Shown here in pieces: positions 27,338 to 58,329 of a stretch of DNA of 64,000 nt; position 1 is the first letter of the stretch; each line of letters starts with the position of its first letter. The DNA lies in assembly GCA_951406725.2 (NCBI GenBank), contig OX597831.1, positions 55,552,001 to 55,616,000 of the forward strand. The letters run 5' to 3'. The notes beneath the pieces were generated by a model that had not been told where the DNA came from, did no database searches, and saw only the letters and a program-made list of their open reading frames with translations. The DNA is from Octopus vulgaris. Taxonomy: Eukaryota. The translations under genes and the position numbers were made by a program.

Positions 27338-27459
27338 CATATATATATACATATATATACATACATACAAAGTTAATTCAAACATGAAAACACAACAACG
27401 CGAGGTTGTGGAACAAATATAGTATTATTGGATGCTCAGGAAGGAAGGGAAGAAGGAGG

Positions 27460-27494
27460 GTTTAACGTTTCGAGCAGAGCTCTTCGTCAGAAAC
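27460..27494 (-). ncRNA. Minimal type I hammerhead in a ~200-bp cassette (27369-27565) between microsatellites
   Basis: GTTT-CTGACGA-A-GAGC-TCT-GCTC-GAAA-CGTT-AAAC; palindromic AACGTT helix III. Confidence 0.65.
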
Positions 27495-27564
27495 ATAGGA
27501 AAAGGAAAGATCCAGTGAGGGAAGACATTGGGAAAAAAATCGCCAACGATACACACGCAGTCAC

Positions 27565-27759
27565 ATATATACATACATATATATACACATGTATATATAC
27601 ACACATATATATAGACATATATATATATACTCACACATATATATATATATATAGAGAGAGACATATATACGTACATATGTATATACGTACATATATATAT
27701 ATATACATACATATATATATATACATATATATACATACATATATATATATATGCATATA

Positions 27760-27857
<98 letters not shown>

Positions 27858-28049
27858 CATACATATATATATACATACATATATATATACATACATATAT
27901 ATATACATACATATATATACACACATGTATGTATATATATGTATGTGTGTATGTATATATTGTATGCATGTATATATATATTGTATGCATGTATATATAT
28001 ATATATGTATGCATGTATATATATGTATGCATGTATATATGTACGTATA

Positions 28050-28084
<35 letters not shown>

Positions 28085-28137
28085 ATATGCACTTACCACA
28101 AACATATATATACATACAATATATGTGTGTGTGTGTG

Positions 28138-28180
<43 letters not shown>

Positions 28181-28236
28181 ATATGCACTTACGCACAAAC
28201 ACATATATATACATACATATATATGTGTGTGTGTGT

Positions 28237-28292
<56 letters not shown>

Positions 28293-28340
28293 ATATGCCT
28301 ACACGCACGCACATATAGATACACATATACTACACACACA
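27565..28340. repeat. Compound (TA)n/(TACA)n/(TATG)n microsatellite in PSAT1 intron 1
   Basis: Seen directly; source of the spurious YIYI ORFs. Confidence 0.95.
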
Positions 28341-28474
28341 TGCCTGCGCATCTCAACACACCTGAAGTTGTTATTTGTGCATGAGTGTTAGACATTAATT
28401 TAAAATCTCCGTTTGTCTCCAACACGCTAAGATTACAAAAAGAAAAAAAAAAAAGAAGAAATGTCAGTACCCAC

Positions 28475-28531
28475 CTTAAGTGAAATCATAGAAGGGCCAG
28501 CTCCAAAATTTATCTTTCTTGCATTAGACAT
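28475..28531 (-). CDS. PSAT1: Phosphoserine aminotransferase exon 1 (MSNARKINFGAGPSMISLK)
   Basis: ATG at 28531; SerC/PSAT N-terminal NFxAGP motif; donor GTGGGT; phase 0. Confidence 0.93.
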
Positions 28532-28699
28532 TATAAGGATAAAGATAAGAAAGACCGATGAAAAAAGAAAAAAAAGTGATAGATATATGCAAATATGCAA
28601 GTACGACGTTGAAACACAGAAGCTTTTTCGGAACAGAAATTGTACACAAGATTGAAAATGCAACGTGGTTTAAATTAAAACTCTAAAAAGTTTGTTTGC

Positions 28700-28740
28700 A
28701 AAATCACGTGGGTTTTAGCAGTCGAGTCTATTGGGCGAGG
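28700..28740 (-). promoter_or_regulatory. PSAT1 proximal promoter: E-box CACGTG (28705) and CCAAT (28730-28734)
   Basis: Motif matches ~170-200 nt upstream of the ATG in a CpG-richer patch. Confidence 0.35.
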
Positions 28741-29516
28741 ATAGCAGCTGTCTGGGTCTCTAATACTAAAGTAGTAAGAGTCGTAGGAGCTGAGAGCGAC
28801 TGCTTAAATTATGTGCTTTGCTCTCGCTCAAAAGTTTTACGGTTAGTTTAACTTGTCAATAGTAACTTGTTCTTCAAATGAATAGAACATTTTACTTTTT
28901 GTTATTCATTATTCATTTTCCCACTTGGTATAAAGAAAATATTTATTTTCCCACTTGTTGGATTAGTTTTGTTTCTTTTGATTCAATAGCAATATATATA
29001 TAGAGAGAGAGCGATAGCTAGCTAGATAGATATGTATGTACGTATGTATGTGTGTGCATGTGTGTGTCTGTGTTAATGCATACATATGCATTTTGTGTAA
29101 TAGATTGACCTAGCTTCAACATTACTTCCTTGCGTTTGAGTAGGAGACGTCTACCTCATAAAATATTCGATAGCAGTTGCTTTAAATACCGTGGCTGCTG
29201 TCCAATGACTGTAAGAAGTGAAGGGTAAAAAAAAAAAAGAATAGAAACCCACTCATAGGCGCAAACACACACAAGTATATTCCTACTTTTTTGCTTGTTA
29301 CAGGCATTGGATGCAGTTATATTTGTTTTAGACTCTAGTACTTATTCTATCACTTTCTTCCAACCAAACCGCTTTCTTATGAGCATGTAGATAACAAAAC
29401 ATTTAGTCAGTGCCAAGAGACTAATGCACAGATGTACTCACACTCACACACACGTGCGTGTGAGTGTCTAGTTTAAAAGCATACAAAGAATAAACATTGA
29501 CTAAAGGACTCAATGC

Positions 29517-29925
29517 GGATCTTTTCGGTTTGAACGGCAGTTTTTACTAGCGGTGTCATATGAAATTGTCACCCATAATTATGGCCCTAGTATCGATCTA
29601 TTGCATTTCAATCTGTGTTAGGGTTGGGGGAGGGTATCTTTTTTTCTTCACAAATGTAAATAAACCCAATCTGTTTCTTAAACGAGGGACATATTCATAC
29701 GGCACAGAATGTTTTTTTTTACCTCAATGGACGTCAGTGATTGGTTGAAATTGCAGAAATTGAAGAAAAAAACAACAACAAATATCTTACAAAGTATAGA
29801 GTTTTCTCAATAAAGCCAAGAGAAAAAGATGTTTTATAAACACATTCCTACCAGTATACGAAGTTTAAAATTTTTTAGTTACCTAGAAATTATGTTAAAA
29901 ACTGCAGTTCAAACTGAAAAGATCC
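29517..29925. mobile_element. MITE with GG termini and 8-bp TSD (CTCAATGC), Merlin-like
   Basis: TIR GGATCTTTTCgGTTTGAACgGCAGTTTTT; exact TSD at 29509-29516 and 29926-29933. Confidence 0.8.
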
Positions 29926-30007
29926 CTCAATGCATATCCAATATTTGTTATAATTATGATACTCAATATGTATATGTATACACACAAACACGCACGCACA
30001 CACATTA

Positions 30008-30800
30008 AAGGAAAAGGAAAGGAAAACCAAGGCAGGGCGGGCATCTCAGGCTGTTTAGAATATTTAATTAGGGTAAGGTGAATCAAGAAGGGAGAAGCAG
30101 AAGTATTGGGTTGTCCGGAAAGTTCATGCCGATTTTTAAAGGAAAGAAAAAGGTCAATAAATACTTGCCATTACATTTTTAATCAACCAAATATGAACCA
30201 TTTTGTTGCACAATGAGTCTCCATCTTTGCTTGAACTTGAAAATTCCATCTTCCCAGAATTGGGGTGGTCTCAAGGCAAACAATTCATCAAGGTATCTTT
30301 TTACGTCATCCAAGGAATTGAAATTTTTACCATGAAAACTATTCTGCAGTGACCTGAATAAGTGGAAATCCGAAGGAGCAATATCTGGTGAATATGGAGG
30401 GTGGGGTAACACGTCCCAGCCGAGCTCCAGCAATTTTTGTCTGGTTCCCAAAGCATCAAGTGCCGAAAATGAACTTTCTTATCTTCCATTTTAAAGGGTT
30501 ACAAAATTAACACAGGTTATAGGAACATAAACCTTCTTCCATAAAAAGATAGCTTAAACTGTGCTCTAAATGAAGGTGTAGTCAAATCTTATTTTATGGA
30601 CTCAACCATGTTCTAAAATAAGTCGAAAGGTAAGCTACTATAAATCGGCACAAACTTTCCGGACAACCCAATAATTACTTCTATTTCTCCTATTTTCAAT
30701 TTTCCTTCTACTTTTCCTTTTTTGATTCACCTTACTCTAATTAACTACTTTAAATTACCTGAGATGCTCGTTTTGCCTTGGTTTTGTTTTCCTTTTCCTT
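30008..30800. repeat. Foldback element (arms ~30008-30103 and ~30705-30800) hosting the mariner
   Basis: AAACCAAGGCA..GCATCTCAGG..TTAATTAG.GTAAGGTGAATCAA is present in inverted form on the other side. Confidence 0.7.
30106..30671 (-). mobile_element. Internally deleted mariner element
   Basis: TIR TTGGGTTGTCCGGAAAGTT..TGCCGATTT; TA TSD; N-terminus MEDKKVHFRH joined to C-terminal HPPYSPDIAPSDFHLF. Confidence 0.92.
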
Positions 30801-30913
30801 ATCTGCTGACTCGGAAGCCTATTACGGATCCCTAGCTCCAGCCTCAGCTGTGAACTTGGAACTTAACGGATGACCAATTATAGCACTTACACAGCGTATC
30901 TATTGGTTTGGAT

Positions 30914-31297
30914 GGAAGCACTCCGTCGGTTACAACGACGAGGGTTCCGGTTTATCCGAATCAACGGAACAGCCTGCTCGTGAAATTAACGTGTAAGTGG
31001 CTGAACACTCCACAGACACGTGTACCCTTAACGTAGTTCTCGGGGATATTCAGCGTGACACAGAGAGTGACAAGGCCGGCCCTTTGAAATACAGGTACAA
31101 CAGAAACAGGAAGTAAGACTGGGAGAAAGTTGTGGTGAAAGAGTACAGCAGGGATCACCACCATCCCCTGCCGGAGCTTCGGGGAGCTTTAGTTGTTTTC
31201 GCTCAATAAACACTCACAACGCCCGGTCTGGGAATCGAAACCGCGATCCTATGACCGCGAGTCCGCTGCCCTAGCCACTGGGCCATTGCACCTCCAC
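30914..31297 (-). mobile_element. tRNA(Arg)-derived SINE with 16-bp TSD; near-identical copy at 48565-48947
   Basis: A box TGGCCCAGTGG, B box GTTTCGATTCC, TCG anticodon-like loop; TSD ATCTATTGGTTT(G/A)GAT. Confidence 0.85.
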
Positions 31298-31549
31298 ATC
31301 TATTGGTTTAGATCATCAGTGAACTAAACCCCTCATATTATATATGTATGTGTGTGTGTGTGTGTATTTAAATATAGGCGCAGGAGTGGCTGTGTGGTAA
31401 GTAGCTTGCTTACCAACCACATGGCTTTGGGTTCAGTCCCACTACATGGCAACTTGGGCAAGTCTCTTCTACTATAGCCTCAGGCCGACCAAAGCCTTGT
31501 GAGTGGATTTGGTAGACGGAAACTGAAAGAAGCCTGTTGTATGTATGTA

Positions 31550-31584
<35 letters not shown>

Positions 31585-31639
31585 CATTATTGGTGAATTG
31601 AAGAAATGGAGCTGAACGCAGATTGAACAGAAATCGTTT

Positions 31640-31733
31640 TATTTCATTCTACACGTGTTTCGAAAGGCACAAATTACCAAAATCCGATGGAATAATGGGA
31701 CCATATTGTGTCTTTCTCTTCAGGAAGAAAATA
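31640..31733 (-). ncRNA. Type I hammerhead ribozyme (left arm, identical copy)
   Basis: Reverse complement of 33498-33591. Confidence 0.85.
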
Positions 31734-32320
31734 GGAAATCCGTTGGAAAAACAAAAACAGAACAGAGGCGGAGCAAAAACAAATCGAACTATGCTCCTAA
31801 GAGCCCATGGCGAAACTGTTTATCAGTGTATGTTGAGAACCGGTGGCTGAAGAATTCAACGGGTCAGGCATCGGTCAATCATGTGGGTGAGGGGGCGTAG
31901 ATGTTCTTTGTGACCGAGAATAAAGTTCTGACTATTTAAGGAATATTGGATGTTTTATAAGGGGCGAGAAAAAATCTACTTAGAGACGTGTGTGTGTGTA
32001 TACTGTTCTATATACGTGTGTGTTGGCGTAGGGGTAGAAAACATTTTTTGTGTACGTGTGTGCGTTTGATCGTTCGGCTGTCAGTGGCTACTGCCGTGAT
32101 GACCGTTGGGTGGCAGAAAAAAAATATATATATCATGTTTTATGTGTGTGTGTGTTCTCATCTAAGCCTGCCTTGTCAAGGAAACCCCCCGCTGTGAAAA
32201 AACCAAGCCCCGTTTGTCTTACAGGAGTAATTCCCCTTGCAGTGGTTAATCGTAGATATCTTAAAGGCTATTTCAGAATTTGTTGCCAAGGGCTATGGGT
32301 GCCGGTATTATTTATAAACG

Positions 32321-33023
32321 CTATTTAAAAGCCAGATAAGTGTAACGCCGCCAATGGGGGCATCGAAAAGCCGACTGTAAAAGCCCGTTTACCATCCGGC
32401 CTCTGGCAAACAAAATATGGAAGAGTTCGGAGACACAAAGGTTGCACTGCCTTCTGCCCCTATCAAATGGGAGGGCCACCGACAAAATTGACCATTCCAG
32501 CCTGTAGCTTAAGTTCGTATCCTTCAGTCGCCATATTAGCTTACTGAGTCCCGTGGTCTGGCGCTTGTTCATGTCCCGAAAAGTTGCGTAATGGTTGGAG
32601 ACACGCAAAGACAATCTTGAGGATGAGGCCCCTACATAAGTGAAGACATCTGAGTCCGTGTAAACCTTGCATTGGTAGACGGCGTTTTTGATCTTGGAGT
32701 TCGCCGACGTGAATCTAATTCTGCTAGGATTAGTTTCTGAAATTAGAACTGCGTTCCTGTCACTATATTCGTTCCGAGACCTGCAGCCGCTTACTACTCT
32801 ATTTTCCACTACGTCACTATTAACTATAGGAATAACCCCTGATTCTCCACTATCTATCAAAGTGCTGTCATTGCTACTGCCCGTGGTGCTGCTATTGCGG
32901 GAAATGATGCTGGGGATGCTATTGGGGCTCTCTACCCTACTCCCATTGTTACCGTCAACCACAACACCCCTATTTATAACTATACCCCTAGTGGGTACTC
33001 CCTGGCTGGAGCTGAGATTATGT
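32321..33023 (-). CDS. GIY-YIG endonuclease domain of a PLE (Neptune-like), N-terminally truncated, no ATG upstream of the domain
   Basis: AVYQC...TYVGAS...LR..NH...LSKLIWxLK...WSIL...CNLCxxE...N...CPH pattern; frame stays open up to the inversion junction. Confidence 0.85.
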
Positions 33024-33497
33024 GTTTTTTCACAGCGGGGGGTTTCCTTGACAAGGCAGGCTTAGATGAGAACACACACACACATAAAACATGATATATA
33101 TATTTTTTTTTTCTGCCACCCAACGGTCATCACGGCAGTAGCCACTGACAGCCGAACGATCAAACGCACACACGTACACAAAAAATGTTTTCTACCCCTA
33201 CGCCAACACACACGTATATAGAACAGTATACACACACACACACGTCTCTAAGTAGATTTTTTCTCGCCCCTTATAAAACATCCAATATTCCTTAAATAGT
33301 CAGAACTTTATTCTCGGTCACAAAGAACATCTACGCCCCCTCACCCACATGATTGACCGATGCCTGACCCGTTGAATTCTTCAGCCACCGGTTCTCAACA
33401 TACACTGATAAACAGTTTCGCCATGGGCTCTTAGGAGCATAGTTCGATTTGTTTTTGCTCCGCCTCTGTTCTGTTTTTGTTTTTCCAACGGATTTCC

Positions 33498-33591
33498 TAT
33501 TTTCTTCCTGAAGAGAAAGACACAATATGGTCCCATTATTCCATCGGATTTTGGTAATTTGTGCCTTTCGAAACACGTGTAGAATGAAATA
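33498..33591 (+). ncRNA. Type I hammerhead ribozyme (right arm)
   Basis: CTGAAGA 33508-33514; stem II GAAAGACACAA/TTGTGCCTTTC; GAAA 33570; palindromic helix III ACACGTGT; GUA cleavage after 33581; helix I TTTCTTC/GAATGAAA. Confidence 0.85.
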
Positions 33592-33923
33592 AAACGATTT
33601 CTGTTCAATCTGCGTTCAGCTCCATTTCTTCAATTCACCAATAATGTTCTAATTTCAATTATCCGCACCAACGCACGGTTGCAACACCATATGGTTGTAC
33701 CTCCAACCGTGCTGTTTTACTGCTGTGATTTTTGCTACTAAGGTATCGGTTAAACTTTTGATTAATCTACTACAAGATTATTCATCTTTCTATTTCACAT
33801 ATATATATATATATATATATATTGGTAAAAACGGTAAGATAACAAAAGAAAGAAAGAGAACTCAATATTATGTAAATAGTGGAAATTTATTTATAAAATA
33901 ATATGTTACAATTACTCAATAGT

Positions 33924-33989
33924 CAAGATAAAACTCTGAGTTTCAGATGCCGAAGTGGAAATCCACAACACTATCTCTTCGGTTATCTA
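33924..33989 (-). ncRNA. Variant/degenerate hammerhead (CCGAAGA core)
   Basis: AGATAA-CCGAAGA-stem II-GAAA-CTCAGAG-TT-TTATCT; 6-bp helix I; near-palindromic helix III. Confidence 0.5.
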
Positions 33990-35019
33990 GCCATCTGAAA
34001 AAACGCTATGAAAAAATACCGTTATATAAAGGGAAATTACTGTGTTATATTTATGCTACTTATATAAAATAAGATTAAAATTTCATAGTAAAACACGTAA
34101 ACATGGCTAGTCATACGCTCACATGTGCGCTCGCGGACCTACGTGCGTACTTATACGTCACTATGAAAACGTACACATCTTCACTCGCATTTTTCGCCAA
34201 ATATATACGCATATATATACAACCTCATACACACACACACATGCGTACTGTAAAAGTGCATACATGCGTCTATATACGCACAAGCACAAGAAAAACCATG
34301 GTTAAAGGTAACAGAAAAAAACATAAGGAAGTATACAAAGCATAAAAACCACGTTCATATACGGACATGCCCTTATGTACTCATACACACACACGCCCAT
34401 ATATGTACATACCCGCACATGTTTATATACGCATACATACACACACATATACGAAAAATGAAGATACATATGCCCCCCCCCAAAAAAAAACCCTAAAAAA
34501 ATGGAAAAATACTAAGTAAAAACGTCTATATATATATGCATTCTTATGCCCGCACACACGCACACATCTAAAACTGCCCATTCATATATATTCACACATA
34601 TATGTGTGTGTGTGTTTGTCCCCCCAACATTACTTGACAACCGATGCTGGTGCGTTTACGACCCCGTAACTTAGCAGTTCAGCAAAAGAGAAAGATAGAA
34701 TAAGTACTAGGCTTACAAAGAATAAGTCCTGGGGTCGATTTGCTTGACTAAAGGCGTCGCTCCAGCATGGCCACAGTCAAATGACTGAAACAAGTAAAAG
34801 AGGTTTAAGTAACCTCATTAACGGATAGAAAATATCCAATGAAATACTGGTTTGTTATCCATTATTTTGTTGTGAATAGTAATGTTCCTAAAATAATAGG
34901 TTTAAATATAAGTCTTGGTTTATAGATATTCAAATTAAAATCCAGAAAATGAGGAATTAGCATTAATATAATTTAATGCTATATATTTCTGGGTTTTAAT
35001 TTGGATATATATATATATA

Positions 35020-35536
35020 TGTTAGAAGAAATGAGGTACTCAGAAATCTGGATGATTTTATATTTACAGATATTTATTAGTCTGTTACATGTTTTTATAA
35101 ATCATATATCATATATTAGCGCTTTCGTCCACTCTGGTGGAGTTTTCAAATTGAACTATTGCAGGAATTTTCACTCTTTTTATAGTATTATTGAGTGTGT
35201 AGGGGTGGGGAGAGATATAAGATAGTACAAGAGGGTGAGGGATGGGGAGAAAGTGAGAGAGAGGAGCATGGGTGTGTGTGTGTGTGTTTGTATCTGGTGT
35301 TAAAGATGTTAAAGTAAAAGAAGGAAAGGAAGGAGAGAAAGAAGAAAAAAATTTGTTGATATCTTTGTAGCTGGTCAGTTTGTCAATAATAAGTGATTCT
35401 TGGCTTTTAGCAATGGCAAATACAGCTGTTCACTCCAAGAGGGGCAAAATGTCACTTTTCAAAAAATTGTCTGGATTTCCTTTTTATCATTGTCTTGTGA
35501 GGGAGAATGTGTGTGTGTGTGTGTGTATGTGCGTGC

Positions 35537-35573
<37 letters not shown>

Positions 35574-35716
35574 TATCTGAAAGGGGTGATAAAGGAAAAG
35601 AAGGAAAGGAAGGAGAGAAAATTTGTTGATATCTCTGCAGCTGGTCAGTTTGTCAGTAATAATCGATTCTTGGCTTTTAGTAATGGCAAATCCAGCAGTT
35701 CACTCCAAGGGGGGCA
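35020..35716 (-). mobile_element. Decayed PLE-like 3' end: degenerate hammerhead (35113-35152) and two tandem ~140-bp copies resembling a GIY-YIG C-terminus
   Basis: TTGAAAA-CTCCAC..GTGGAC-GAAA-GCGC-TA; duplicated units translate to ...LTSCRDINKF; bounded by (TA)n. Confidence 0.4.
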
Positions 35717-35726
35717 ATATATATAT

Positions 35727-35770
<44 letters not shown>

Positions 35771-36264
35771 AATTAGGGTTCAGCTAACTGCTTTACCACA
35801 TACCGAAATTAGAAATAGGAGTTAAAAATTCCTTTTCTGCTACTATAAGAATCTCTATGACGGTAAACATACTTTTTTTACGAAGGCAAAGAGAAAAACA
35901 ATGAATCAACACGACGTTTCGAGAGTAAAGTAATTTGATTTTACTTCTCTCTTCAGTATGATATTTCCAATTTTTTATAAAATTTGAAAGGCTGAATATG
36001 CACACAATTGAGTGTCATCATGTAACAGATATCATCCAACCAACACTGTGCCTTGAATGCCATGGTTAAAAAATATAAATCCTCATGAAATTATATTTCA
36101 GAACCTTATTCCATCTGGTTACGGAGGCAATAGCTCTCTTTTCCTCAGTAGCATTTAGGATGAGTGATAGGTTGAAAGAGTCAGTTATAGTGGAAGGCTG
36201 TTCGAAGCTTGGGGTAAAAGGGTACATCCATCGTCTCTCCTCCCATCGTTCCTGGACAGTCCAA

Positions 36265-36857
36265 GGCAAAACTTTCGCTTGTCCCCACCCCAAAACCAAC
36301 CTTTTTAAAAACTTTTTTTCTCGACACAAATCTCTCCCCCCCCCCCTTTTCGACTACGGGGAATACAAATCTGCAAAAAAATTGGCAAAAATCGACATTT
36401 CTAAATTACCACCCCCACCCCTATTTCCTTCATTTTTAACTTCTTTTCAGAATTTTTTTTGGATTTTTTTTTCTCAAAATATGCGGAAAAATACGGAGAT
36501 TATAATTCTGAAAAATATTTCCAAAAGTCTTTCTAAAATTATTTTTAAAGAATTTTTTCTTTTCAAAATATGCGGAAAAATACGGACATCAGGATTCGGA
36601 TAAAAATTTCAAAACATTTCTGTACTTAGGGTTACGGTTTTACTGTTAGTGTTAGGGTTAGGGTTTTCGGGTTAGTGTTGCGGAAAAAAGTCAAAATTGA
36701 AGAAGTTGTTTGATGGGAAGGCGGTGGGGAATTTTCAAAATGCCGATTTTCGGAACCTCCGTATCTGAAAACGGGAATTTTTGGCAAAAAGAAAAAAATT
36801 CAAATAAACAAATTTGGGAGGAAATGGGGTGGGTGAGGTGCGGGCGGAAGTCTTTCC
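36265..36857. mobile_element. Degenerate GG-terminal MITE with internal TTAGGG-like repeats; TSD CAGTCCA(A/G)
   Basis: Imperfect TIRs; 7/8 TSD match; TTAGGG units at 36626-36675. Confidence 0.55.
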
Positions 36858-38410
36858 CAGTCCAGCTGCCTCCAAAATAAGGAGTATATTGAATTTATAT
36901 CAGAATGATGAGCAAAGCCACTCGCATTCAGTCAGCATGGTGATCCATGTAGAACCAGCATTCAAAGGAATTTTATACATCGTCAGCTCACTCTTCCACA
37001 TATAACCCCATTTGTTAGACTATAAGGATGATATAGAGCTCTTCCAGGTTAAGTAAACTACCAACGTTCGTCTCAGACATAGCAATAGCAAGCCCTCCGG
37101 GTTTCAATCAAGGAATACCATCGATATTCAATGCAAACAGTGCAGTAGTATCAATGGAGTTACTCCGCTCAACTCTCGAGGCAGAAAAAAAATTAACAGA
37201 TTAAGAAAATAGGAGATAAGTGGAGTCCCACTGTACTCGCTAAGCAGAGTGGTTGAACTGTCAAGCCTTCATGTCTGACTGAATTAAATGTGTTTTTAGG
37301 TAAACTTTGAGAACCACCCTAGAGCATCATGGTGTGGGCGACTGCTTCACACTCTAGTTCAGTACCAACCTTGAGTTAAACGGGTGAGAACTCCGAATAT
37401 ATGCTATAGGAAACCGATGACAATTTATTTTCGTTATAAAACATATCAAAGCATATCAAATTCGAACGAGTCGGAGATAGTCCTTAGGCTTTTAAAGAAT
37501 CAATAGGTTTGCGCAAAGATCGAGGGACATATGTAGGGGACGATACTCTTGGAAGAAAACGTGTTCACGAACTATGTGAGACACCAAAAGATAGAGGCCA
37601 ACCGACATTGGTTACTTTACGATGTTGTGGGCGAAGACCATAAATTCTTGGACCAGGGACTACTGGGAATGATGTAATAACGGTACAGGTTCAGGCCAGT
37701 CTAAGCAATCATCCAGATGAGCAGATGAATGATAGATCCGAAAAGAAATATACTTATGCATTATAACAAATTAATAAATAAAAAAGCAATTTAAAGATGA
37801 AAAATCGTAGAGTCCTCACTATAGATGACTTTTAATTCCGAACTAACAAGCAGAAGAGCACATAATCAATATTCAATATCTTATGAAAAACAGAAAAGAC
37901 TCCAGTCTGGGTCTTTCTGCTGGTTAGAAAAAGCGGCGAGGTGGTAAAAACGTTAGCACATTTGGCAAAATGTTTAGCGGCATTTCTTTTGACTCTACGT
38001 CTAAAGTTCAAATTATACTGAGGTCGACTTTGCTTCTCGTCCTACTGAAATCGATAAAATAAAAATCATTTGCGCACCGATCGTTGTAATCGACCATCCC
38101 ACTTCTCCCAAATTTCCAGGCTTTGTAGAAGGAAATAATAATACTTAGGGTGACAAGCGATACTGGAAAAAGTTTTAAGAATCCTCCTCCTCAATAGAAT
38201 AAAAAGTAAAACCAAAGAAACAACGGGAAATATCGGATATATCTAACACTTTCCCATGTATTGATAAGAGATATTGAGCGTAACTTCGGTATAGGTACCG
38301 GATACATTTCAAGAAAGTGGTTTTTTTAAATATATATATGGGGGGGGTTAGGGTTTGTGTTAGGGGTGGGAGAAAAAGGTTTCTGTTATCCTCAGAAATG
38401 TAAACAAAGC

Positions 38411-38560
38411 CACTTCCGGTACTTATACCGAAGGATCGCCGAGTCCTCGGTTTTTGACCGAAGGAACATTTACTCTTTCTGTGAATGTACACGATATCGG
38501 GTGGGAATTATCTCCCTTCCATAATTCAACATGGCGGCCTCGGTTAGTAAACACGTGTTT
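38411..38560 (+). promoter_or_regulatory. NOC3L core promoter motifs: ETS (CACTTCCGGT, 38411), YY1 overlapping the ATG (CAACATGGCGGC, 38527), E-box CACGTG (38552)
   Basis: Consensus matches clustered in a locally CpG-enriched patch at the predicted first exon. Confidence 0.55.
38531..38542 (+). CDS. NOC3L: NOC3L putative coding exon 1 (MAAS)
   Basis: AACATGG Kozak-like context in a CpG-richer patch; donor GTTAGT; phase 0 matches next exon; too short to confirm by homology. Confidence 0.65.
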
Positions 38561-39415
38561 TTCTCTTGAGTCGTTTTATTGAAACAAATTTTACCTTTTT
38601 ATATACTTGCATAGAATATCTCATTAATTTGCAATTTGATTAATTGCTGTTATCATAATGATGTTTATAAATGACTTTTTACGGAATGTCTCTAAGCATA
38701 TGGGAACCTAAATAGCATAATGTAACTTATTTATTGTGGTTACTAAGTTACTACGCAATGGAAGTGAGCACAAATTTGAAAATTGTTATTCAATTGTTAT
38801 ATATAATGAGAATTTTGTCGATCCAGATAATAATTCACACATTGAATATAGAATATTTTTGGAATCGCATGAAGAAAAATTTAAAGAATGTCTTATACTC
38901 GAGTGTTTCAGTCGTTTATGTTTCAAAATCTGTCGCGTAACGAAATGAAACGGCCACCAAGAACTTGCACTTTCCTTAATTTCTGTTCACAGTTATGCAT
39001 CAATACAACCTACGTTTTATGTTTCGATGCTTTTTTTTTTTACTTCTCGTTATAAAATTGGTTTTAAAATCAGTATACCTACACATTTGTGCCCTCCATC
39101 GATTTTGTTTTTTCAATGAAACTGTATATTGACCATGAAATTTTCTACAAATTTTCAGCAGAACCTGAATTCTTTACTCGAAGGTGGTGCTCCAGCATGA
39201 CTTCAGCTTCTGGCTGAAACCAGTAAAAGAGTCAATATGCATCAGATGGTCTAGATACCGATTATATCGGAATTTGTTGTGAAGAGGTTTTTCCGAGGGT
39301 GGGGAGTGCTTCGTAAAATTCTCTCGGGTTGGCTTTCCTATTAACTGGATATTTTTAATGGAATTTCTTATAAATACCTTTCGAATGGTGTATATTACAA
39401 TTATATATTGAAATT

Positions 39416-39757
39416 GGTTAATGTTTACAAGTACACCGGCACGAAAAAATCGACGTTTTTTCTTTCCTTTCTTTTTTTTTTTCAGCGGAATCCTGTTTTC
39501 GAATAAGCCAAAAACCACGTTTACAAAATTTTAAATTCCCTCCTCTCCACCTCAAATTTTAACTATTTTCGAATTTTTTTTTCCCAATCGGGATAGAGTG
39601 GTGAGGAGTGTGTGAATCAATTTTGGAGTTTCCTCAGAAAATTTGAAATTAATTATCCCCACCCCCCATATTCTCAATATCCATATTTTCCCACGTAGAT
39701 TGAAAAAAAAGATAAAATTCGATTTTTTTCGTGCCGGTGTACTTGTAAACATTAGCC
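39416..39757. mobile_element. MITE with GG termini and 8-bp TSD (TTGAAATT), Merlin-like
   Basis: ~38-bp TIR GGtTAATGTTTACAAGTACACCGGCACGAAAAAA; exact TSD at 39408-39415 and 39758-39765. Confidence 0.82.
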
Positions 39758-42120
39758 TTGAAATTTAATATGACAAAAAAAAAAAAAAAAAAAAATTTGG
39801 TAGGCTCGCACACATATATTCACATACGTCTAAAATGAAATTTGAAATCTTGAACGAAAATGTGATGTGTGTCAGTTAGAAAAGAAAGCCCACCAGTTTG
39901 TTTTAGTTTGTGTTTTTTTTTTTTTTCGTATTAAATTCCGATATAATTGTAATCAACACTCTGAAAAATATTTGTGTAGAAAATTTCATTAAAAAAAAAG
40001 ATACTTATTTTTCTGAAAGTTATGAGGAAACAAAACCGACTTTTGTGAATTTTCAGAAACTTTCCTCCCCACACTCAGAACATTTTTTCCCAACTATATA
40101 CTCAGAATTTCTAATATGTTTGTAAAAAAACAATTGCATTAAAAAATATCCATTTTTCGGGACATTATGAGGAAACAAAGTTTGTGGGGGTGGGGTGCAT
40201 ACTTGTATAGGTATGCCTTAAAATCATCAACTCATTACATTTTAAAATCTCTTAAAATAGAAGTTAACAATACTTGACTTTTGTTTCAGTATTTTACATA
40301 ACAGTTGTTTTTCTTTCCTTTTTGTGTTTTTAAACTTATACACTTCCTATTTCTCAGAAATATGCCAGGCTTCTCTCTACTATCCTGTTCTTTAAATTCA
40401 GCCAAATACTTTTCCTTTCAAAGAAAACTGAATTTTTGACAACTTTATACTACTATGATGGTCTTTCTTTCTCTTTTTCTGAATGTCAGTGGATAAATTC
40501 TTCAATCTTAAGTTAGCCCTGATTAAGAATTACATTTTTTCTTTTGACATAGTATATTATATATTGTGTTATGTTTTAAGATGGTAGCAGTTATAATTTA
40601 AAGGAGATATGGTTACTATTTCCTTAGTTGTCAAAGGCATTGGTTCAGTTTGCACTTTTTGGTTTAGTGGTCACTGCCAGGGGACTACAATGCCCTGGGA
40701 ATGATTCTTGCAATAGACAAGTATTCCTTTATCATGGGGAGAGGTTTATATATTAATTTAATGTCACAAGAGTAAAGCTATAATAGCCTTTATGTCTCTT
40801 CAGACTCAGGACAGGGGGATATACATGTCTCTTATACATTTTAATAAAAATGTTGATTTAGAGAGGTTTATTAAGTTCTTAATTTGATGTGGCTTTTTAG
40901 TCAGTTTGAGATTAGTGCTCTGACTACACAGTATGATCGGAAAACAATCTAGTAAATATTAGTTATATATTATATGTATAATTAACCAAATGGCAATGAC
41001 CAACCAATTCTGAAATGCATAGCAACAGAGAATGTAGCCATATCCAGCCCAAATATTCTTCTTGTTTTATGTTCAAACTGGTTAGATCTGGTCTCTCTCA
41101 CCTACTGTACAATGTCATTCCAAAAATATAAGAGCACATCATTGAAATCTCAAAGCTATGAGACAATGCATGATTAATTCGAACTAATGTGAATAAATAA
41201 CGTTTGACAGTTATCTGAATATTAAAGGGCTAAAACTGGATTATTATATCATTTAACAAGGGTTAATGTTTATATTGACTTCTGATTAGAACAGATATGC
41301 CTTTATAACTTATTGTGATAGGCAAAGTATGAATTCCTCTACATTTCACATTTTACCTGTGGTCCAGGTGTGAATGCCTAAACATCTCAGATATCAAATC
41401 AAATGTAAAAGAATCAGATGGATATACATTCATATTCATATTATGCATATAATATCCACAAGCTTATCTGTGCTGTCCAAAATGTTGGTAATTTCTATTT
41501 GTTTTCCTTGTTAAAAAAGAAAATTCCTTTCATTATATTCCTTTTAAGAACCACAATGTAGAAATGACTCGGTTAAGCTTGTTTTTGGAACATAAGGTTC
41601 TTACATAAAATTGAACTGTAAGGCTGGATGGTTTTTAAAAAGTGAGATATTTGTATTATGTAGTCCAAGGTAGGTTGATATCAAATATTAATTAACAAGG
41701 TATGTTGTTGAAGTATGCTTTCCTGCTCAGTACAACCCAACATCAGTCTAGGGTTGGAGGTGACTTGTGCATAAAGTGGTCCCTCCCTGGGACATGTCAC
41801 AAGCAAATTATTGTTGCAAAAATCAGTATAATGAAGAGGGTTTTGCTTAGTGTACCTTGCTAGTATGGCAAATATCTGTTGGAAGTTCACTTCACCTGCA
41901 AGACTAGCAGGTAATGCATAACTCTCTTTGTAAAGTATGTTGTTTTCTTATTAGTTCTTTTGGTAAAATAATGTAAACATTTCAAAAGTGCAAAACAATG
42001 TCTATATTCAGATTTTTATATCTTAACATTCAGAAATTGATTTTTCAAATGATGTTTCATACATTATAGTAACTGAAAAAAAGTATTTTTCTAATCAACA
42101 TTTTCTAACTAATTTTTCAG

Positions 42121-49589: not shown

Positions 49590-49636
<47 letters not shown>

Positions 49637-51123: not shown

Positions 51124-51435
51124 TATAAAAAGTTTAAACAGCATGTGGTGACACTGATTCTGACATGTCTACACAGCTGCATATAGCGATGGAGTAAAAT
51201 GATGGCATAAAATTTCATTGCTACTATGAGAAATTATTGCTCTGCTTTATGACTTTTCACTTTACAAGCAGTCTTTGGGAATAAATTAACTTGTATGTTG
51301 AGGCATTACTGTAATTTACCTTTTCTTTATACTTGTATCTTTATTTTCTCTTTATGGGTACATCCAAACATAAATTTAATTAACTACTTTTGGTGCTGAA
51401 TGTATTCATAATTTTAATACATTTTTTTTCACATA

Positions 51436-51833
51436 GGCGCAGGAGTGGCTGTGTGGTATGTAGCTTGCTAACCAACCACATGGTTCCGGGTTCAGTCCCA
51501 CTGCGTGGCATCTTGGGCAAGTGTCTTCTGCTATAGCCTCGGGCCGACCAGTGCCTTGTGAGTGGATTTGGTAGACAGAAACTGAAAGAAGCCTGTTGTA
51601 TATATATATATATATATATATATATGAATATATGTGTGTGTCTGTGTTTGTCCCCCTAGCATTGCTTGACAACCGATGCTGGTGTGTTTATACGTCCCTG
51701 TCACTTAGCAGTTCGGCAAAAGAGACCGATAGAATAAGTACTGAGCTTACAAAGAATAAGTCCTGGGGTCGATTTGCTCGACTAAAGGCGGTGCTCCAGC
51801 ATGGCCGCAGTCAAATGACTGAAACAAGTAAAA
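51436..51833 (+). mobile_element. Major tRNA-derived SINE with central (TA)n(TG)n; copies at 17906, 20318, 20940, 31377 (split), 49435, 57042, 59185, 59910 and 11990-12410(-)
   Basis: GGCGCAGGAGTGGCTGTGTGG head, GGTTCAGTCC B box, CCTTGGGCAAG core-like motif, tail ...GAAACAAGTAAAAG. Confidence 0.88.
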
Positions 51834-52782
51834 GTTAATAATAGTTTCATAGCATTTATCTATGATCCATTCTGTAGCATCACAACCATTCCAGTGAATT
51901 TGGATACAGCCACTTTAGTCTTCATCTAGACAATGCAAATAATTATGTTTGGGTATCTACTGATCTACTCCTTTATTGCTGTTGAATAGAATTGAACTGA
52001 GAAAAATAACATATGCTTATGCTCCAACAATGTGCAAATTTGATATTTCCAGCTCAAACATTTACCCTTCAGCATTCAGATTACTTTGTCAAATGTAATG
52101 CTTATTTATTTGCATTATTTTGAATTGATCATGCACTATCTCATAGCTTTGAGATTTTGATGATGTGATTGCATATTTTAAAAATGACATTATGGGGTAG
52201 GTGTGAAAGGCCAGATCTGACTGATATGAAGATAAAACTGGTAGAATATTTAGGTCAGGTGCAATCAGTTTAAACAAAAATACATGGAGGAGACATTACT
52301 TAGATGCATTTGAGTTTGATGAAGAGATAGATAGAGTGAGAAGAAAGAGGTGTCTACATAAAGAGTGAAAGTGAAAGAAACAGATGTCTTGTCTTTAAAT
52401 TGCTACAGTAGATATTGCCAAAGTGATTGTTGTATCATCTGACATCTACTGTAGTAATGGAATCTCATTTCACCAAATCTTATTTATACATGAAACTGAG
52501 AAGGAAAACAGGAATGTGTGGTGTTTTTATTATGTGATAACCCCATAAATATAATTTCAAAGTAAAATTATCAAATAGTCAATATAAAAGGTGTGTGTGT
52601 GTATAACACCAGGCAAGAAACTCTAGAAGTTCATATTTAATGTAGATTTTCCTGGAATTAAATTTTTTGGCCTAAAAAGTAATTTTTTTCAGTTTTTTTT
52701 TTACTGGATTTCCAAATAATTACAAAATTCTTAATAATGAATGATTTGGATTAAATATTTGCATGATTCAATTTAATTTCAG

Positions 52783-52832
52783 AACCCAAAGATGACTCTA
52801 CATTATCACAAACTAAACTAAATGATAAAAAG
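52783..52832 (+). CDS. NOC3L: NOC3L exon 7 (QPKDDSTLSQTKLNDKK)
   Basis: TTTCAG/GTGAGC; needed to bridge phase 1 to phase 0. Confidence 0.8.
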
Positions 52833-53518
52833 GTGAGCAAAATTCGTTTGTAATACTTTTTCTTATGTATTATTCCTTATTATGGAATGACTGTAGTATT
52901 GAATCTCCATATTGTTATGATATAAGTGAAGAAGCATTTGGCTTTCCAGCTAGGTGCAGTAGTGGCTGTATGGTAAAGATGTTTGCATTGCAGTCAAATA
53001 GTTCCAGGTTTGCCCCCCCCCCCCCCCCCACAACCATGTGGTATCTTGGAAAAGCATTTTCTAACATTGCATCAAAGAGATTCAAGTTTTGCAAGTGAAT
53101 TTGGATAGACGGAAACTGTGTGGAAGCCTATCCGACTATTCTTGAATAGTAGGCTTAATCCATCACCAGGTGTAGCACAAATATTTGATCTTTAGTCAGC
53201 ATGCACTAAGCAAGTAATTGGACTAGGTGCCCCCCCCTGAAGATAATTTGATATCTCAGTGTGCTGCATCAACCCATGAATTTGGTTTCATCCCACTATT
53301 TGCGACAAGTCTTGGAGGCATGTAACATACCATGAGCAGTACTCTTCCTCTTTTAACCTGGCCATCATTTTAAACGAGATCTCTTCTTTATTTCTTCAGT
53401 ATTTTAACAGTTTGTCTTGTTTGATACACACTTATGGAAGTGTAGCTAATTTATCTATGTGGTTGTTCTAATTAAGTTCAAGTTAGATCAAAGGTTTCTG
53501 TTTTTTTTTATACAACAG

Positions 53519-53638
53519 GTTATGAAAGAAGTTGCTACTCAATGCCTGTGCAAGCTACTTGTTAGCTGTTATCACTTCAATTTCCGCAGTGAACTCATCT
53601 CATTTGTTGTCCCTTGCATGAATCTGTTCAACAAAGTG
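53519..53638 (+). CDS. NOC3L: NOC3L exon 8 (VMKEVATQCLCKLLVSCYHFNFRSELISFVVPCMN...)
   Basis: HFNF motif of NOC3; CAG/GTATGA. Confidence 0.94.
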
Positions 53639-53750
53639 GTATGATTTTTCTTTATTCTTAATTATTCTTTACATATATATATAATACATTATATGTGTAT
53701 ATCATCATCATCATCGTTTAATGTCCGTTCTCCATGCTAGCATGGGTTGG

Positions 53751-53782
<32 letters not shown>

Positions 53783-54827
53783 AAGAATGAGAGAAAATGT
53801 ATATCTTCACACAGTCTTCATTACTTAATCAAGCAAATACTTATTCTTTATTAAGATTTACCTTAGCATGTGAATAGAAGGATCAAGCACACTTATGATC
53901 AAAAGGCAGTCCAGTTATGACCTTCTCAACATTTTTTTGCTACAGTCTGTCTTGGATCACATAATGTGTCCATTTTTTAAGACAGATGTGATTCAAAAGT
54001 GATTTAGCTGTTATTTCAAGTGTTGGCATATAATGGCCTTGATTCATAATTGGCAAGTTCTTTCCATTGACTAAAAAAAGGCAACATTACATCAGTTTGG
54101 TTTTCCTCTTTAAAGTTAGAGGTTCTAAGGGTGCTTGACTCCTGAAAGCATTGTAGGAATGCTGTTGTGACATGCAGTGTGTCTTGAGTATTTTACTTGT
54201 GCTAGAGCTCATCTCTGTCCAAGTCTGAGCACGACTGATTTCTTCTACTGAAACAGAAGATGAGGAGAGAAAGAACAGGAGAGAGAAGAAATGGCTCCAG
54301 TACCAGACTGGTACTTTATTTTTCAACACCAAAAGAGTGAAAGATAAAATTGACTGCAGCAGGATTGGAACTCAGAGCACTGGAACATATTACAGAGCAG
54401 TTTCTCTGGTGCTCTACCAACTATGCTAACTCACTGCCTTATTCTATTAGGATATCAATGATGTGGGAAAAGTAAAGCCCTTGGCTATTTGCATATATTT
54501 CATTGTTTTTTTCTTTCTTTTTGGAGCATTTTGTTTTATGGCTATATACTCTCATTCTTACTGAGCAGTTATTTATGTAATCTGAGTAGAATTTAATTCT
54601 TCACCCAAGCAAAATAAGTTATATGCTTTGTCCCTAAGTACACAACTTATTGGTTACAGTGAAGTGTGAACTCATGACCATATATTCAATATGTCAATCC
54701 CCTTGACTTTAAAAGCATTGTGTCTGTTTGCTTGCATGAAATCAGTAAGATGTTCATCTTTAGTTATGTTATATTCAAGCAAAGGCTACATTTGTCGATA
54801 ATTTTGTTAATTGTTATCCAATTCCAG

Positions 54828-54899
54828 AGTTCAAATGCTGCATGTGAGGCAGTTAAAGAGGTTTTCAAAATTGATAAACTTGGTGCTGCTTCTCTTGAA
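54828..54899 (+). CDS. NOC3L: NOC3L exon 9 (SSNAACEAVKEVFKIDKLGAASLE)
   Basis: CxAVxxxFKxDKxGxxSL motif; CAG/GTGAGT. Confidence 0.93.
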
Positions 54900-55537
54900 G
54901 TGAGTAAAAATTTGCTTATGTTATATCATTGCTAGTTTGACTGTTTAATACTTAACCATTTCATTACCCTATTTCTACTGAAATATACTCCCTTTGTTTC
55001 AATTAAGTTTTTAAATAATTAAGAATTTGATAAAATAATTTTGTCGTTATCAAGCTGGTGCTTGGAACTTAAATTAGCATGAAAATTTGATGGATGATTT
55101 TAATTTAAAACAGGATGTTTGTATTCTAGAACTAGGGACAATCTCAGGCACGTTGGTAACAAAAGGGTTTTCAATAGGTTACCACATGGAGAACCTAGTG
55201 GCTGTTGACTTCTGCATTATACCTTTTTGTTGTCCTTGAATCTGATGACAGTGAATTGAAAAGTATTTGAATATTAAATGTAATCTAGCAGAACTCTGTA
55301 ACCCATAACAGCCACAAAATATAAAATTTGTGATGATATTGATTATTATTAATGAGTGTAAGTGAAAAAGACAGCTACCTTAGAGTAGTAAACAGTTTGA
55401 TCTTTTATTAGTTAACTCCATCTTTGTTTCTATATAAAGTATTTTTCTTTGTATCCCTTAGTAATGTGACAATACTTCTTATATTAACAGGATTTTTCTT
55501 TTCCTATAGTAATCTGACTTTTCCTCTATATTTTCAG

Positions 55538-55594
55538 ATTGTAAAAGGTATTGAAGATCTTGTTAAAAAGAAAATATCTCTTGTGAAACCTAAG
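55538..55594 (+). CDS. NOC3L: NOC3L exon 10 (IVKGIEDLVKKKISLVKPK)
   Basis: TTTTCAG/GTAAGT; phase 0. Confidence 0.9.
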
Positions 55595-55989
55595 GTAAGT
55601 GGAATTGGACAGAATTTAAATTATCCTGAACACTCTACCTTTTGGCAGTGATCATAAACCCAGTTATCTTTATTTCTAGCGAAGAGGAGGAAGAGAGGAA
55701 CTTGATTAGAACTCTTCATTGTTTGATTATTCTAAGTTGCTATGTTTGAGAATGGGATTAGCTAGGTTGCCATCTAAGGCTGTGGATTTGGCTGTGCCCA
55801 GATGGAGACGGATCTGCAAAGTTTGGAAACGGGAAGCATTGAAAGGTTTAATGAGAGACAAAGGAAGAAACTAATTCGAGAATACTGTTATTTATACTGA
55901 AAGTGAATTTGGAAGGGGAACCAATGGCATAATGTGGCTTTAGCTGGTTAAGTCAAAAGTTTTTTTCATATTCGAAGCTTTAATTAATA

Positions 55990-56870
55990 ATTCAAACAAA
56001 TTAAATATGAAAAGTGTTTCTTCATCAAAATATATCCCATCTTAGTCTGTTGCCATTGTTGAGCCAGAAGCTCAATTCCACTCTTATGCCATTTTGCTGG
56101 TTTAGAGGCAAAAAACTTTCTGCATCTGTTTTCAACCTCATTCACATTGTAGAACCTCCGTCCATGCAGGAAATGATGGTACAGCGTCTGGACTGAAGGC
56201 AGGGTGAGGCAGCATTTGCAGCCCTTCAAGTTTACACTTGGTCACATTGGCAGTGTGTGCTGGGGCATTGTCATGTTGTTGGAATGCATGTCTTCAATAG
56301 ACCAATGCCAGGTAGTGGGCTTTTAAATCATAATGTACTTGCTGCAGTTGTTGAGCATAAAGGTTAGCATTCACAGCATAACCTTCAATTCAAAATGCCT
56401 GTCTTTGACAAGTTCTGAATTCTGGCCAGAACAAAACCACTGATTTTTCTTAGATTTATGAAAATAGATCCAATTTTCATCCCCAATTTGATGCCAAAAA
56501 TTAGCATCTTGAGGATTTGCCAGCAGTTGTCTGCAAACGTTCATACCTGGTCATTGGCCAGTTCGTGAGGAGCTTCTCAACAGTGCCTGCTCACCAGGCC
56601 AAACTTCTGGAGGTGTCAACTAATGATGCTTTATTAAGGAACAAGTTCTGCTGACAATGTAAGAGTGTTTGTGCTTGGCTATTGTTCAGCCATTTCAAGT
56701 AAGGCCTCATCTTCCACAACAGGTTGTCTAGTGAAATGTGGAGAAAAGGACTGAGTGTAAGGGCAGAAGTAGAAGAAATTAATGATGTGTAAGACCCAGG
56801 AACTGTCAACAAATGGTTCAGATGTTTCAAGGAATGTGACACCAGCCTCATAAACAAACCAAAGTCAGGG
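55990..56870 (-). mobile_element. Decayed mariner transposase relic
   Basis: FFASKPAKWHKSGIELLAQQWQ (mariner C-terminus) and TVNKWFRCFK (HTH) peptides. Confidence 0.6.
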
Positions 56871-57711
56871 TGACTGCTGTCAGGGAAGAAATGAGGAATA
56901 TTCTTTCACACTGCATTTGGAATGAAAGTAGATTTGATCTTAATGGTCAGATATTGTCAAACGTTATCTGCTCCCAACAATTTCTGAGTCTACACTTTTG
57001 GTTCGGAAATGGAAAGAAGAAATTTTGAAATAATTATTGTATAGGCGCAGGAGTGGCTGTGTGGTAAGTAGCTTGTTTACCAACCACATGGTTCCGGGTT
57101 CAGTCCCATTGTGTGGCACTTTGGGCAAGTCTCTTCTACGATAGCCTCAGGCCGACCAAAGCCTTGTGAGTGGATTTGGTAGATGGAAACTGAAAGAAGC
57201 CCGTCGTATATATGTATATATATATGCATGTGTGTGTTTGTGTGTCTGTGTTTGTCCCCCTAGCATTGCTTGACAACTGATGCTGGTGTGTTTATGTCCC
57301 CGTTAATTAGCGGTTCGGCAAAAGAGACCGATAGAATAAGTACTGGGCTTGCAAAAGAATAAGTCCCGGGTTTGAGTTGCTCGATTAAAGGCGGTGCTCC
57401 AGCATGGCCGCAGTCAAATGACTGAAACAAGTAAAAGAGAGGTGTTGGTATGTCTTTGTGGTTAAGAAGCTTGCTCTGCAACCTCGTAATTTCCCATTCA
57501 ATCCTACTGTGCAGCACCATGGGGAAGTGCCTTCTATAGTCTTGGGCTGACAAATGCCTTTTGAGTGTGTAGTGATGCCATCTTGGAAATCTCCAGCATG
57601 CGCAGGGTTGGAGTCTTCCAGGAGGCCTGCTGCAAGTTCCCTCGTGCGCATGCACAAATACTGTTGAAGTTAATCAGAAGTCTTGACTCTTTCTTCGATT
57701 AATATTTTATG

Positions 57712-57940
57712 TAAAGGATGTGAGCTGCACCCATCCAGTGCGGGAATCTCTCATCCTGTTACAAGTGAATTTGGTAGATGGAAACTGTGAGAAAACCTGT
57801 CATGTGTATGTATATATATATAATATAAAGGATGCGAGCTGCACCCATCCAGTGCGGGAATCTCTCATCCTGTTACAAGTGAATTTGGTAGATGGAAACT
57901 ATGAGAAAACCTGTCATGTGTATGTGTATATATATATATA
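57712..57940 (+). repeat. Tandem duplication, 2 x ~114 bp
   Basis: TAAAGGATG(T/C)GAGCTGCACCCATCC... at 57712 and 57826, nearly identical. Confidence 0.9.
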
Positions 57941-57980
57941 TATGTATCAAATGAAATAAAAAACAGAACACAAAGGATGT

Positions 57981-58074
57981 CGCAGTACACATGTTTCGAG
58001 CTTTATAAAACAACTTATTCTTACATCAATGTATAATCGACATAACAGATAGTTTAAAACCCTCTTCAGCCGCA
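57981..58074 (-). ncRNA. Type I hammerhead ribozyme in a ~350-bp cassette (57946-58298) between (TA)n runs
   Basis: TGCGG-CTGAAGA-GGGTTTTA...TAAAGCTC-GAAA-CATGTG-TA-CTGCG; all three helices pair. Confidence 0.75.
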
Positions 58075-58329
58075 TGCAATTGCTACACCAAAGGCTTGTA
58101 TCACATTATGAAAGGTTTGAGAAAGAACATTTGGTATTATTTATAATGGTAGGTAAACTGAGTATCACTGAGAAAGTATGTTTGTAAATCTTCATAATCA
58201 AATAGGTGTACAGGGTATTATTGGACTCCAAACATACTAGCTGGCATATACAGGTGCTTACATTTATCAAGTATTCACCCTGGATTTATTGTACCTACCT
58301 ATATATATATATATATAAAATAAAAAATA

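Follow-up and report, generated by a model that had tools for sequence, protein, structure and literature searches.

Hammerhead motifs beside (TA)n microsatellites in a 64-kb stretch of the Octopus vulgaris genome: probable 5′-truncated copies of separate Penelope-like element families

Introduction

What brings several hammerhead ribozyme motifs with little common sequence together beside (TA)n microsatellites on one octopus chromosome? The question is raised by a stretch of 64,000 nt from Octopus vulgaris (assembly GCA_951406725.2, contig OX597831.1, positions 55,552,001 to 55,616,000), hereafter the window. Its initial annotation, made from the letters alone, had reported five unrelated hammerhead cassettes between 27369 and 58298 and ascribed them to Penelope-like elements (PLEs) or retrozyme-like RNAs, possibly with shared GIY-YIG nuclease and reverse transcriptase (RT) machinery. 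Our answer, to which we assign a probability of roughly 85%, is that the cassettes are 5′-truncated copies of five or six separate PLE families, which were inserted into existing (TA)n by their own nuclease and RT. The hammerhead would have been carried along because of its position near the 3′ end of the element. The hammerhead/(TA)n pattern is real and largely known, and it includes one testable variant, here called family A.

Results

Hammerhead motifs in the window

The full window was scanned on both strands with a type I descriptor (core CYGANGA, helix II of at least 3 bp, GAAA, helix III, UH, helix I of at least 3 bp), and 150 dinucleotide shuffles in 1-kb blocks served as the null. Five motifs were detected, with C3 at 27490(-), 31723(-), 33508(+), 33982(-) and 58069(-), every one of them within 27369..58298. 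The shuffles yielded a mean of 0.14 and a maximum of 2 motifs, and 0/150 reached five, so that the excess over dinucleotide-shuffled sequence expected from the initial annotation is present in this window. Since the motifs at 31723 and 33508 are the two arms of a single element (cassette A), the five motifs represent four unrelated cassettes (D, A, B and E in order of position). The core CUGANGA...GAAA...UH is exact, with helices I to III, in D, A (twice) and E, and B carries U4C. When the helix I requirement was dropped, a sixth motif was added (cassette F, C3 at 35956(-)), compared with a mean of 0.75 in the shuffles, 0/60 of which reached this count.

The remaining motif, at 35113 (cassette C), lies outside the strict set, as its core reads UUGAAAA and its helix I has 2 bp. 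With two core substitutions allowed, C is among 20 matches compared with a shuffle mean of 19.9, and 29/60 shuffles reached 20. A tight U3-A8 descriptor, written after C had been seen, gave C as its sole match, and 3/100 shuffles reached one. Judged by its sequence, C is a plausible but unproven U3-A8 hammerhead. A looser U3-A8 descriptor was distrusted (5 matches, of which four are AT-rich and have a helix I of 0-1 bp, versus a mean of 1.16), and loose core descriptors gave match counts at chance level.

Four of the five cassettes reported initially (motifs at 27460, 31640/33498, 33924 and 57981) are upheld by intact-core motifs, while the one at 35113 is at best a U3-A8 variant and F (35913-35956) had been overlooked. 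The description of the cassettes as sharing little primary sequence and a palindromic or nearly palindromic helix III proved accurate: blastn among the six detected no significant DNA similarity (best E 0.067), and the helix III palindromes are exact in four cases and near in two.

In detail, D (27460..27494, -) is a minimal type I hammerhead with CUGACGA, an extra A before the 4-bp helix II, a loopless helix III ACGU, a GUU triplet and a 4-bp helix I. The motif of A (31647..31726, -) combines CUGAAGA with a 5-bp helix II plus extension, helix III ACACGUGU and a GUA triplet, and a second one is found in an inverted copy (33505-33584, +). B (33926..33988, -) shows a CCGAAGA core, an extra U before GAAA, helix III ACUC-A-GAGU, a GUU triplet and a 6-bp helix I. 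The motif of E (57981..58074, -) consists of CUGAAGA, an 8-bp helix II with a long extension, helix III ACAUGUGU, a GUA triplet and a 5-bp helix I. The minimal motif F (35905..35963, -) has the exact core CUGAAGA, a helix II of 4+5 bp, ACGU and a GUC triplet, with helix I one base out of register. The possible hammerhead C (35115..35151, -) has UUGAAAA, a 5-bp helix II with a basal C.C, helix III AGCGCU and a 2-bp helix I. B and E are Hydra-type hammerheads, and D and F are loopless minimal ones.

An Rfam search up to E 1 gave 68 matches, all to miRNA and snoRNA models on microsatellites and none to a hammerhead. Free folding did not recover the hammerhead fold and gave unremarkable z-scores (-0.16 to -1.34). 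Both results are expected for motifs with an unstable helix III; according to computed energies, pairing of the helix III words is confined to dimers (-1.7 to -10.3 kcal/mol).

Association with (TA)n and a split SINE-like repeat

Distances were taken from each cleavage site to the next downstream perfect (TA) tract of at least five units and amount to 115, 67, 218, 110, 97, 146 and 43 nt. All six families have such a tract 43-146 nt downstream, and the value of 218 nt belongs to the tailed twin of A. The upstream distances are 153-2417 nt. As background, a tract occurs within 150 nt downstream of 8.1% of all positions, both strands considered. The association of the cleavage sites with downstream (TA)n, claimed initially, is confirmed in the window. 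The sites form about three clusters, and p is about 5e-4 if the clusters alone are counted. The cleavage site of D (27464) passes at a minimum of five units only; at six or more, the nearest tract is 7296 nt away. Altogether, 35 merged TA tracts occur in the 64 kb, 7 of which have an adjoining hammerhead end. As 27/35 lie in or beside two families resembling short interspersed nuclear elements (SINEs), most of the local TA appears to stem from SINEs.

The age of one target can be read from a block at 31584-34583, comprising A, a (TA)12 tract (33799..33822) and B, which interrupts one copy of a 400-bp repeat that we take to be an octopus SINE. Its 5′ half (31369..31583, +) ends in an internal (TA)15 and aligns to the 5′ half of 5/5 intact copies, and its 3′ half (34584..34802, +) resumes at the internal microsatellite. 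The halves meet at a TA/TG microsatellite that is present in 5/5 intact copies aligned, being short in one. The block splits the repeat at its internal (TA)n, and the target tract is therefore older than the insertion. The split SINE illustrates how insertion targets for one class of repeats are provided by another. The proposal that PLE ends land in (TA)n is supported by this pre-existing tract and by a cassette with a GIY-YIG coding end.

Cassette A encodes a predicted GIY-YIG nuclease

Cassette A spans 31584-33798. Its main copy begins with the distal 3′ untranslated part with the hammerhead, which forms the left inverted-repeat arm (31584..32203, -). The open frame of 233 aa (32321..33022, -) is 5′-truncated and comprises a Ser/Asn-rich linker, a cysteine-free motif and a GIY-YIG nuclease; it ends at 32321 and is broken off at 33023, before the RT. 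An inverted 5′-truncated copy with the second hammerhead follows (33024..33647, +), and beyond it a tail of about 150 nt (33648..33798, +), which multicopy depth and a contig mark as a likely part of the family RNA. A hammerhead near the 3′ end, 5′ truncation, an inverted copy and a tail are traits of endonuclease-bearing (EN+) PLEs. The 620-bp arms differ by two 2-nt indels and no substitutions, so the insertion is young.

The frame contains the motifs AVY..YVG, R, H, CNLC, E, N and CPH. The residues Y, Y, G, R, H, E and N are kept, CNLC and CPH flank E and N, and no CCHH is found inside the GIY-YIG domain of the frame. With HMMER, 2699 homologues (E<=0.001) were recovered for its C-terminal 139 residues. 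A model predicted from 115 sequences reached a predicted local distance difference test score (pLDDT) of 88.8 and resembles I-TevI (Z 9.2, root-mean-square deviation (rmsd) 2.4, 89 residues aligned) and T4 EndoII (Z 8.6, rmsd 3.4, 111 aligned), with other GIY-YIG domains ranking next. The frame aligns with RT-bearing proteins having the Hydra marks DKT, QWR and CxxC-E-N-CxH and no CCHH. Of the named proteins, those of Octopus sinensis come closest; one of them, P0151, joins an RT (YRDD), a thumb, an Asn/Ser-rich linker and an A-type nuclease. The RT region in which Hydra elements carry DKT and RWK is absent from A and P0151; DKT is present in the relatives P0030 and P0169. From the alignments and the modelled fold, we conclude that the frame is the predicted C-terminal GIY-YIG nuclease of a Hydra-type PLE. 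The Naiad clade was rejected: it needs an N-terminal nuclease and no canonical hammerhead, whereas in A the nuclease ends the frame and the hammerhead follows.

A word-index protein search found no longer nuclease relatives among 150 candidates, although HMMER did recover such relatives, a PDB sequence search gave 0 matches, and Pfam returned nothing above cut-off for six relatives of A. Independently of this, five PLE proteins (P0001, P0003, P0151, P0167 and P0175) are labelled as host genes in databases (dyrk1-like kinase, Myb-like, GATA-like), a mislabelling due to their Asn-rich linkers.

Absence of the linker finger from family A

The CxCx5C finger of the linker is absent from A, and a cysteine-free motif stands in its place, which is why we label A as Hydra-derived and not as a canonical member. 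Among 48 RT-bearing proteins, two stop before the linker, and the finger is present in 45 of the 46 others (39 by pattern, 6 by eye), P0151 being the only one without it. The replacement motif is conserved: the frame of A shares it with six proteins that fall into five clusters at 50% identity. Its predicted structure (residues 18-34) comprises two strands and one short helix. In an unrooted quick tree without outgroup, P0151 groups with the finger-bearing P0018 (Argonauta), P0168 and P0169 (Shimodaira-Hasegawa-like approximate likelihood ratio test, SH-aLRT, 99), on a long branch and with half its columns empty. This placement suggests a loss of the finger. Pattern counts on 150 short homologue fragments (37 finger, 2 replacement, 21 neither, 90 unscorable) were too noisy and were not used. 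A literature search, with subscription journals and Repbase outside its scope, found no paper describing a finger-less Hydra-type family.

The other cassettes

Cassette D (27369..27564, -) is likely a PLE 3′ end and may run on through an AT-rich tract at 27565-28289; its 3′ end borders directly on a TA-rich tail (27339-27368) that belongs to a repeat copy at 27083-27337. B (33823..34583, -) is multicopy, non-coding and likely a 5′-truncated PLE end. C (35021..35716, -) lies between (TA)8 and (TA)25 and is multicopy over the part compared (to 35260). It also contains an 83% identical direct duplication (35269-35450/35552-35720) with (TG)n between the copies. F extends over 35768..36070 (-), its 5′ limit being a guess, and E (57944..58299, -) lies between two TA tracts. 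Immediately before E, a 114-bp tandem duplication with a SINE-like half ending in TA was observed (57702-57942). CA/TA-rich segments occur in A, B and D. With 227 proteins as queries, tblastn found no match in D, B, C, E or F. A cluster at 24984-25085 (best E 1e-4) and a match at 2584-2685 were dropped as likely noise.

Other copies in sequencing runs

The stretch or part of it is contained in 20/24 listed sequencing runs from 8 studies. Four runs were compared over 32204-35260 at 80% likeness, using contigs only. In run X1, the summed depths over A, B and C are in the range of 1e4-1e5 and the listed single contigs have 22-62. A, B and C have many copies, depth giving no copy number. Over A, the summed depth in X1 drops from 869,566 at the hammerhead end to 14,136 at the 5′ break; over B, it peaks at the hammerhead end and is lower 5′ of the hammerhead. 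The opposite-strand joint 32204/33024, found in 3/4 runs, shows that other copies run from the frame to the 3′ end uninterrupted, which makes the inversion a local feature. The hammerhead and the tail of A are linked by a contig (X9 record 28) that covers 33470-33683. At 33972, the letter that pairs in helix II of B accounts for 797,344 of 803,881 summed depth (110 contigs, X1). None of the best 40 of 251 variant rows falls in the core of C. Runs X4 and X9, whose status as RNA is a guess, cover all 30 bins. In a metagenome scan, none of 91 pattern matches was confirmed.

Further repeats in the window

An uninterrupted frame of 446 aa at 9921-11261 (-), with a Tc5/pogo-type helix-turn-helix and DDE_1 (E 4e-31), looks like an intact DNA transposase. 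Two related RT fragments (25697-26776, +, and 1128-1845, -; 74% DNA identity) with an internal PHD/C1-like cysteine cluster are presumably pieces of RTE-type long interspersed nuclear elements. An AT-rich 230-bp repeat without hammerhead occurs in five copies (8095-8324, 24797-24969, 41036-41234, 52061-52258 and 60449-60678); its ends TTAACCCTT/AAGGGTTAA resemble those of miniature inverted-repeat transposable elements. TTAGGG-like runs and GCGGA motifs characterize several non-coding stretches (29490-29910, 36080-36800, 38250-38480 and 39260-39760), which show short inverted matches (39405-39471/39702-39771) and possibly form one DNA-element family. At 30008-30800, an inverted repeat (30008-30103/30705-30800) with inner inverted ends near 30107 and 30673 encloses a decayed stretch that we assume to be mariner-like.

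Discussion

In the proposed course of events, the GIY-YIG domain of each family would nick an existing (TA)n tract, and reverse transcription would begin near the 3′ end of the RNA and halt early. The early stop would leave the hammerhead-bearing end beside TA, and since each insertion would leave TA for the next arrival, families would stack. The palindromic helix III suggests that cleavage needs two copies of the same family in a tandem transcript. Double hammerheads require helix I strands from one family, and RNA-level cooperation between families was rejected by this reasoning. Given that helix III is calculated to pair only as dimers and that single minimal motifs failed to cleave in an earlier study (Cervera and De la Pena 2014, PMC4209133), we expect the lone copies of the window to show hardly any activity. 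Shared GIY-YIG/RT machinery, a possibility raised in the initial annotation, is not evident from the window: a coding match occurs in only one of the six cassettes, and 5′-truncated copies of separate families are the simpler account.

Several points weigh against this interpretation. Coding sequence occurs in A only; for D, B, C, E and F, the link to PLEs consists solely of the motif and its position. For the frame of A, Pfam gave no match and Foldseek none under E 0.001, its top six rows being GIY-YIG enzymes (E 0.02). Motif C may be a chance match and motif F is damaged, and TA targeting rests on one locus per family. Finally, the run data are contigs without molecule ends, in which cleavage and RNA ends are not visible.

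Some of the cassettes (D, B, C, E and F) might instead be monomers of non-autonomous non-long-terminal-repeat (non-LTR) retrozymes or similar RNAs that depend on the RT and nuclease of an autonomous PLE. These cassettes are indeed short (about 200-760 nt) and without coding match, and a recent preprint (bioRxiv 10.64898/2026.07.22.740005) reports that the share of monomers ranges from 0 to 1 across retrozyme families and that these have a PLE origin. We regard this explanation as unlikely, for the retrozyme-like RNAs of the initial annotation find no support here: no hammerhead lies inside a tandem array in the window. The motifs are minimal or of the Hydra type, not of the canonical retrozyme type, and the depth over B, highest at the hammerhead end and lower 5′, is that of truncated copies.

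Alternatively, the TA association would be passive and reflect insertion into AT-rich DNA or self-made TA. TA tracts are common, with 35 merged tracts per 64 kb, A, B and D contain CA/TA-rich segments themselves, and a Poseidon nuclease that has no linker finger prefers AT-rich DNA and 5′-ATT-3′ (Frangieh et al. 2024, PMC11167929). We consider this improbable, as a tract within 150 nt downstream is found at 8.1% of positions versus all six families, and intact copies of the split repeat already have the microsatellite at the place of insertion. A chance origin of the motifs within AT-rich repeat DNA agrees with the missing Rfam hammerhead, the weak folding z-scores and the chance-level loose descriptors and may hold for motif C alone, but it is hardly tenable overall given that 0/150 and 0/60 shuffles reached the observed counts and most other copies of B retain the pairing letter at 33972.

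If the cassettes are truncated copies of separate PLE families, the hammerhead cluster itself is a textbook outcome, chiefly relevant to repeat annotation. The useful part is family A, which is young, high-copy and finger-less, so that the finger-targeting idea becomes testable. The linker zinc finger is regarded as probably responsible for (TA)n targeting, and the insertion bias is named an open mechanism (Craig et al. 2021, PMC8557442). We tentatively propose, at somewhat less than even odds, that family A is a recently active, Hydra-derived octopus lineage in which a conserved cysteine-free beta-hairpin has taken the place of the zinc-finger linker and insertion is still directed to (TA)n, and that SINE-borne TA tracts are shared pads where unrelated hammerhead families pile up. 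If true, family A would be a natural test of whether the linker finger directs microsatellite targeting; either the finger-targeting idea would be wrong or a second reader would have evolved. The surprise is tempered by two points: TA targeting by A rests on one locus, and Penelope/Poseidon elements are also described as lacking the linker finger and preferring AT-rich DNA (PMC8557442, PMC11167929).

Comparison with known systems

Among the known systems, Poseidon PAc of Anolis (PMC11167929) offers a tested mechanism of AT-rich nicking and of internal RT initiation that explains tails, and hammerhead cleavage was unnecessary for its insertion in vitro. It belongs to a different clade and is not reported, in the accessible text, as a (TA)n microsatellite specialist. 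Non-LTR retrozymes of animals (PMC7229834; bioRxiv 10.64898/2026.07.22.740005) share short non-coding units, a type I hammerhead and a proposed PLE origin with the cassettes; they differ in being defined by tandem units and circular RNAs (170-400 nt), and no tandem unit with a hammerhead was found in the window. For O. vulgaris itself, 31 recently active Penelope-like families with 336 insertions are annotated, and ribozymes are unmentioned in the accessible part of that annotation.

Closer similarities exist to the minimal hammerheads of metazoan PLEs (PMC4209133), for which within-genome variability, palindromic helix III and a U3-A8 core are described and single minimal motifs failed to cleave. 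The window shares with them the palindromic or loopless helix III, an extra base after position 9, the U3-A8 variant, and many unrelated families per genome, mainly as single motifs, as well as opposite-strand pairs. In contrast, A and E have an extended helix II of 54-65 nt, and the U4C core of B is not mentioned in the available text of PMC4209133.

The Hydra clade is the nearest relative of A. PMC8557442 describes hammerheads and (TA)n insertion in Hydra PLEs including Hydra-1_Obim of Octopus bimaculoides, lists (TA)n for 26/27 Hydra families, this one among them, and shows a CxCx5C linker in 9/9 Hydra rows (Fig. S7). Unlike these, A has no CxCx5C and a long Ser/Asn-rich linker, its tail comprises about 150 nt versus 30-40 in the Hydra clade, and the hammerhead of Hydra-1_Obim is matched by 0/6 window motifs. 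The Hydra marks (section 11 of PMC8557442), with E and N flanked by CxxC and CxH and with CCHH absent, agree with the C-terminal GIY-YIG domain of A. Further common features are the 4-bp near-palindromic helix III, (TA)n insertion, and the hammerhead near the 3′ end, which starts about 100 nt from it in several Hydra families (104, 105 and 101 nt). Penelope-3_HM has a helix III identical to that of B (File S2), and an inverted 5′-truncated copy as in A is reported for Penelope-13_HM. According to the literature, an inverted copy with a tail is typical of PLEs, as are single, variable and truncated hammerheads.

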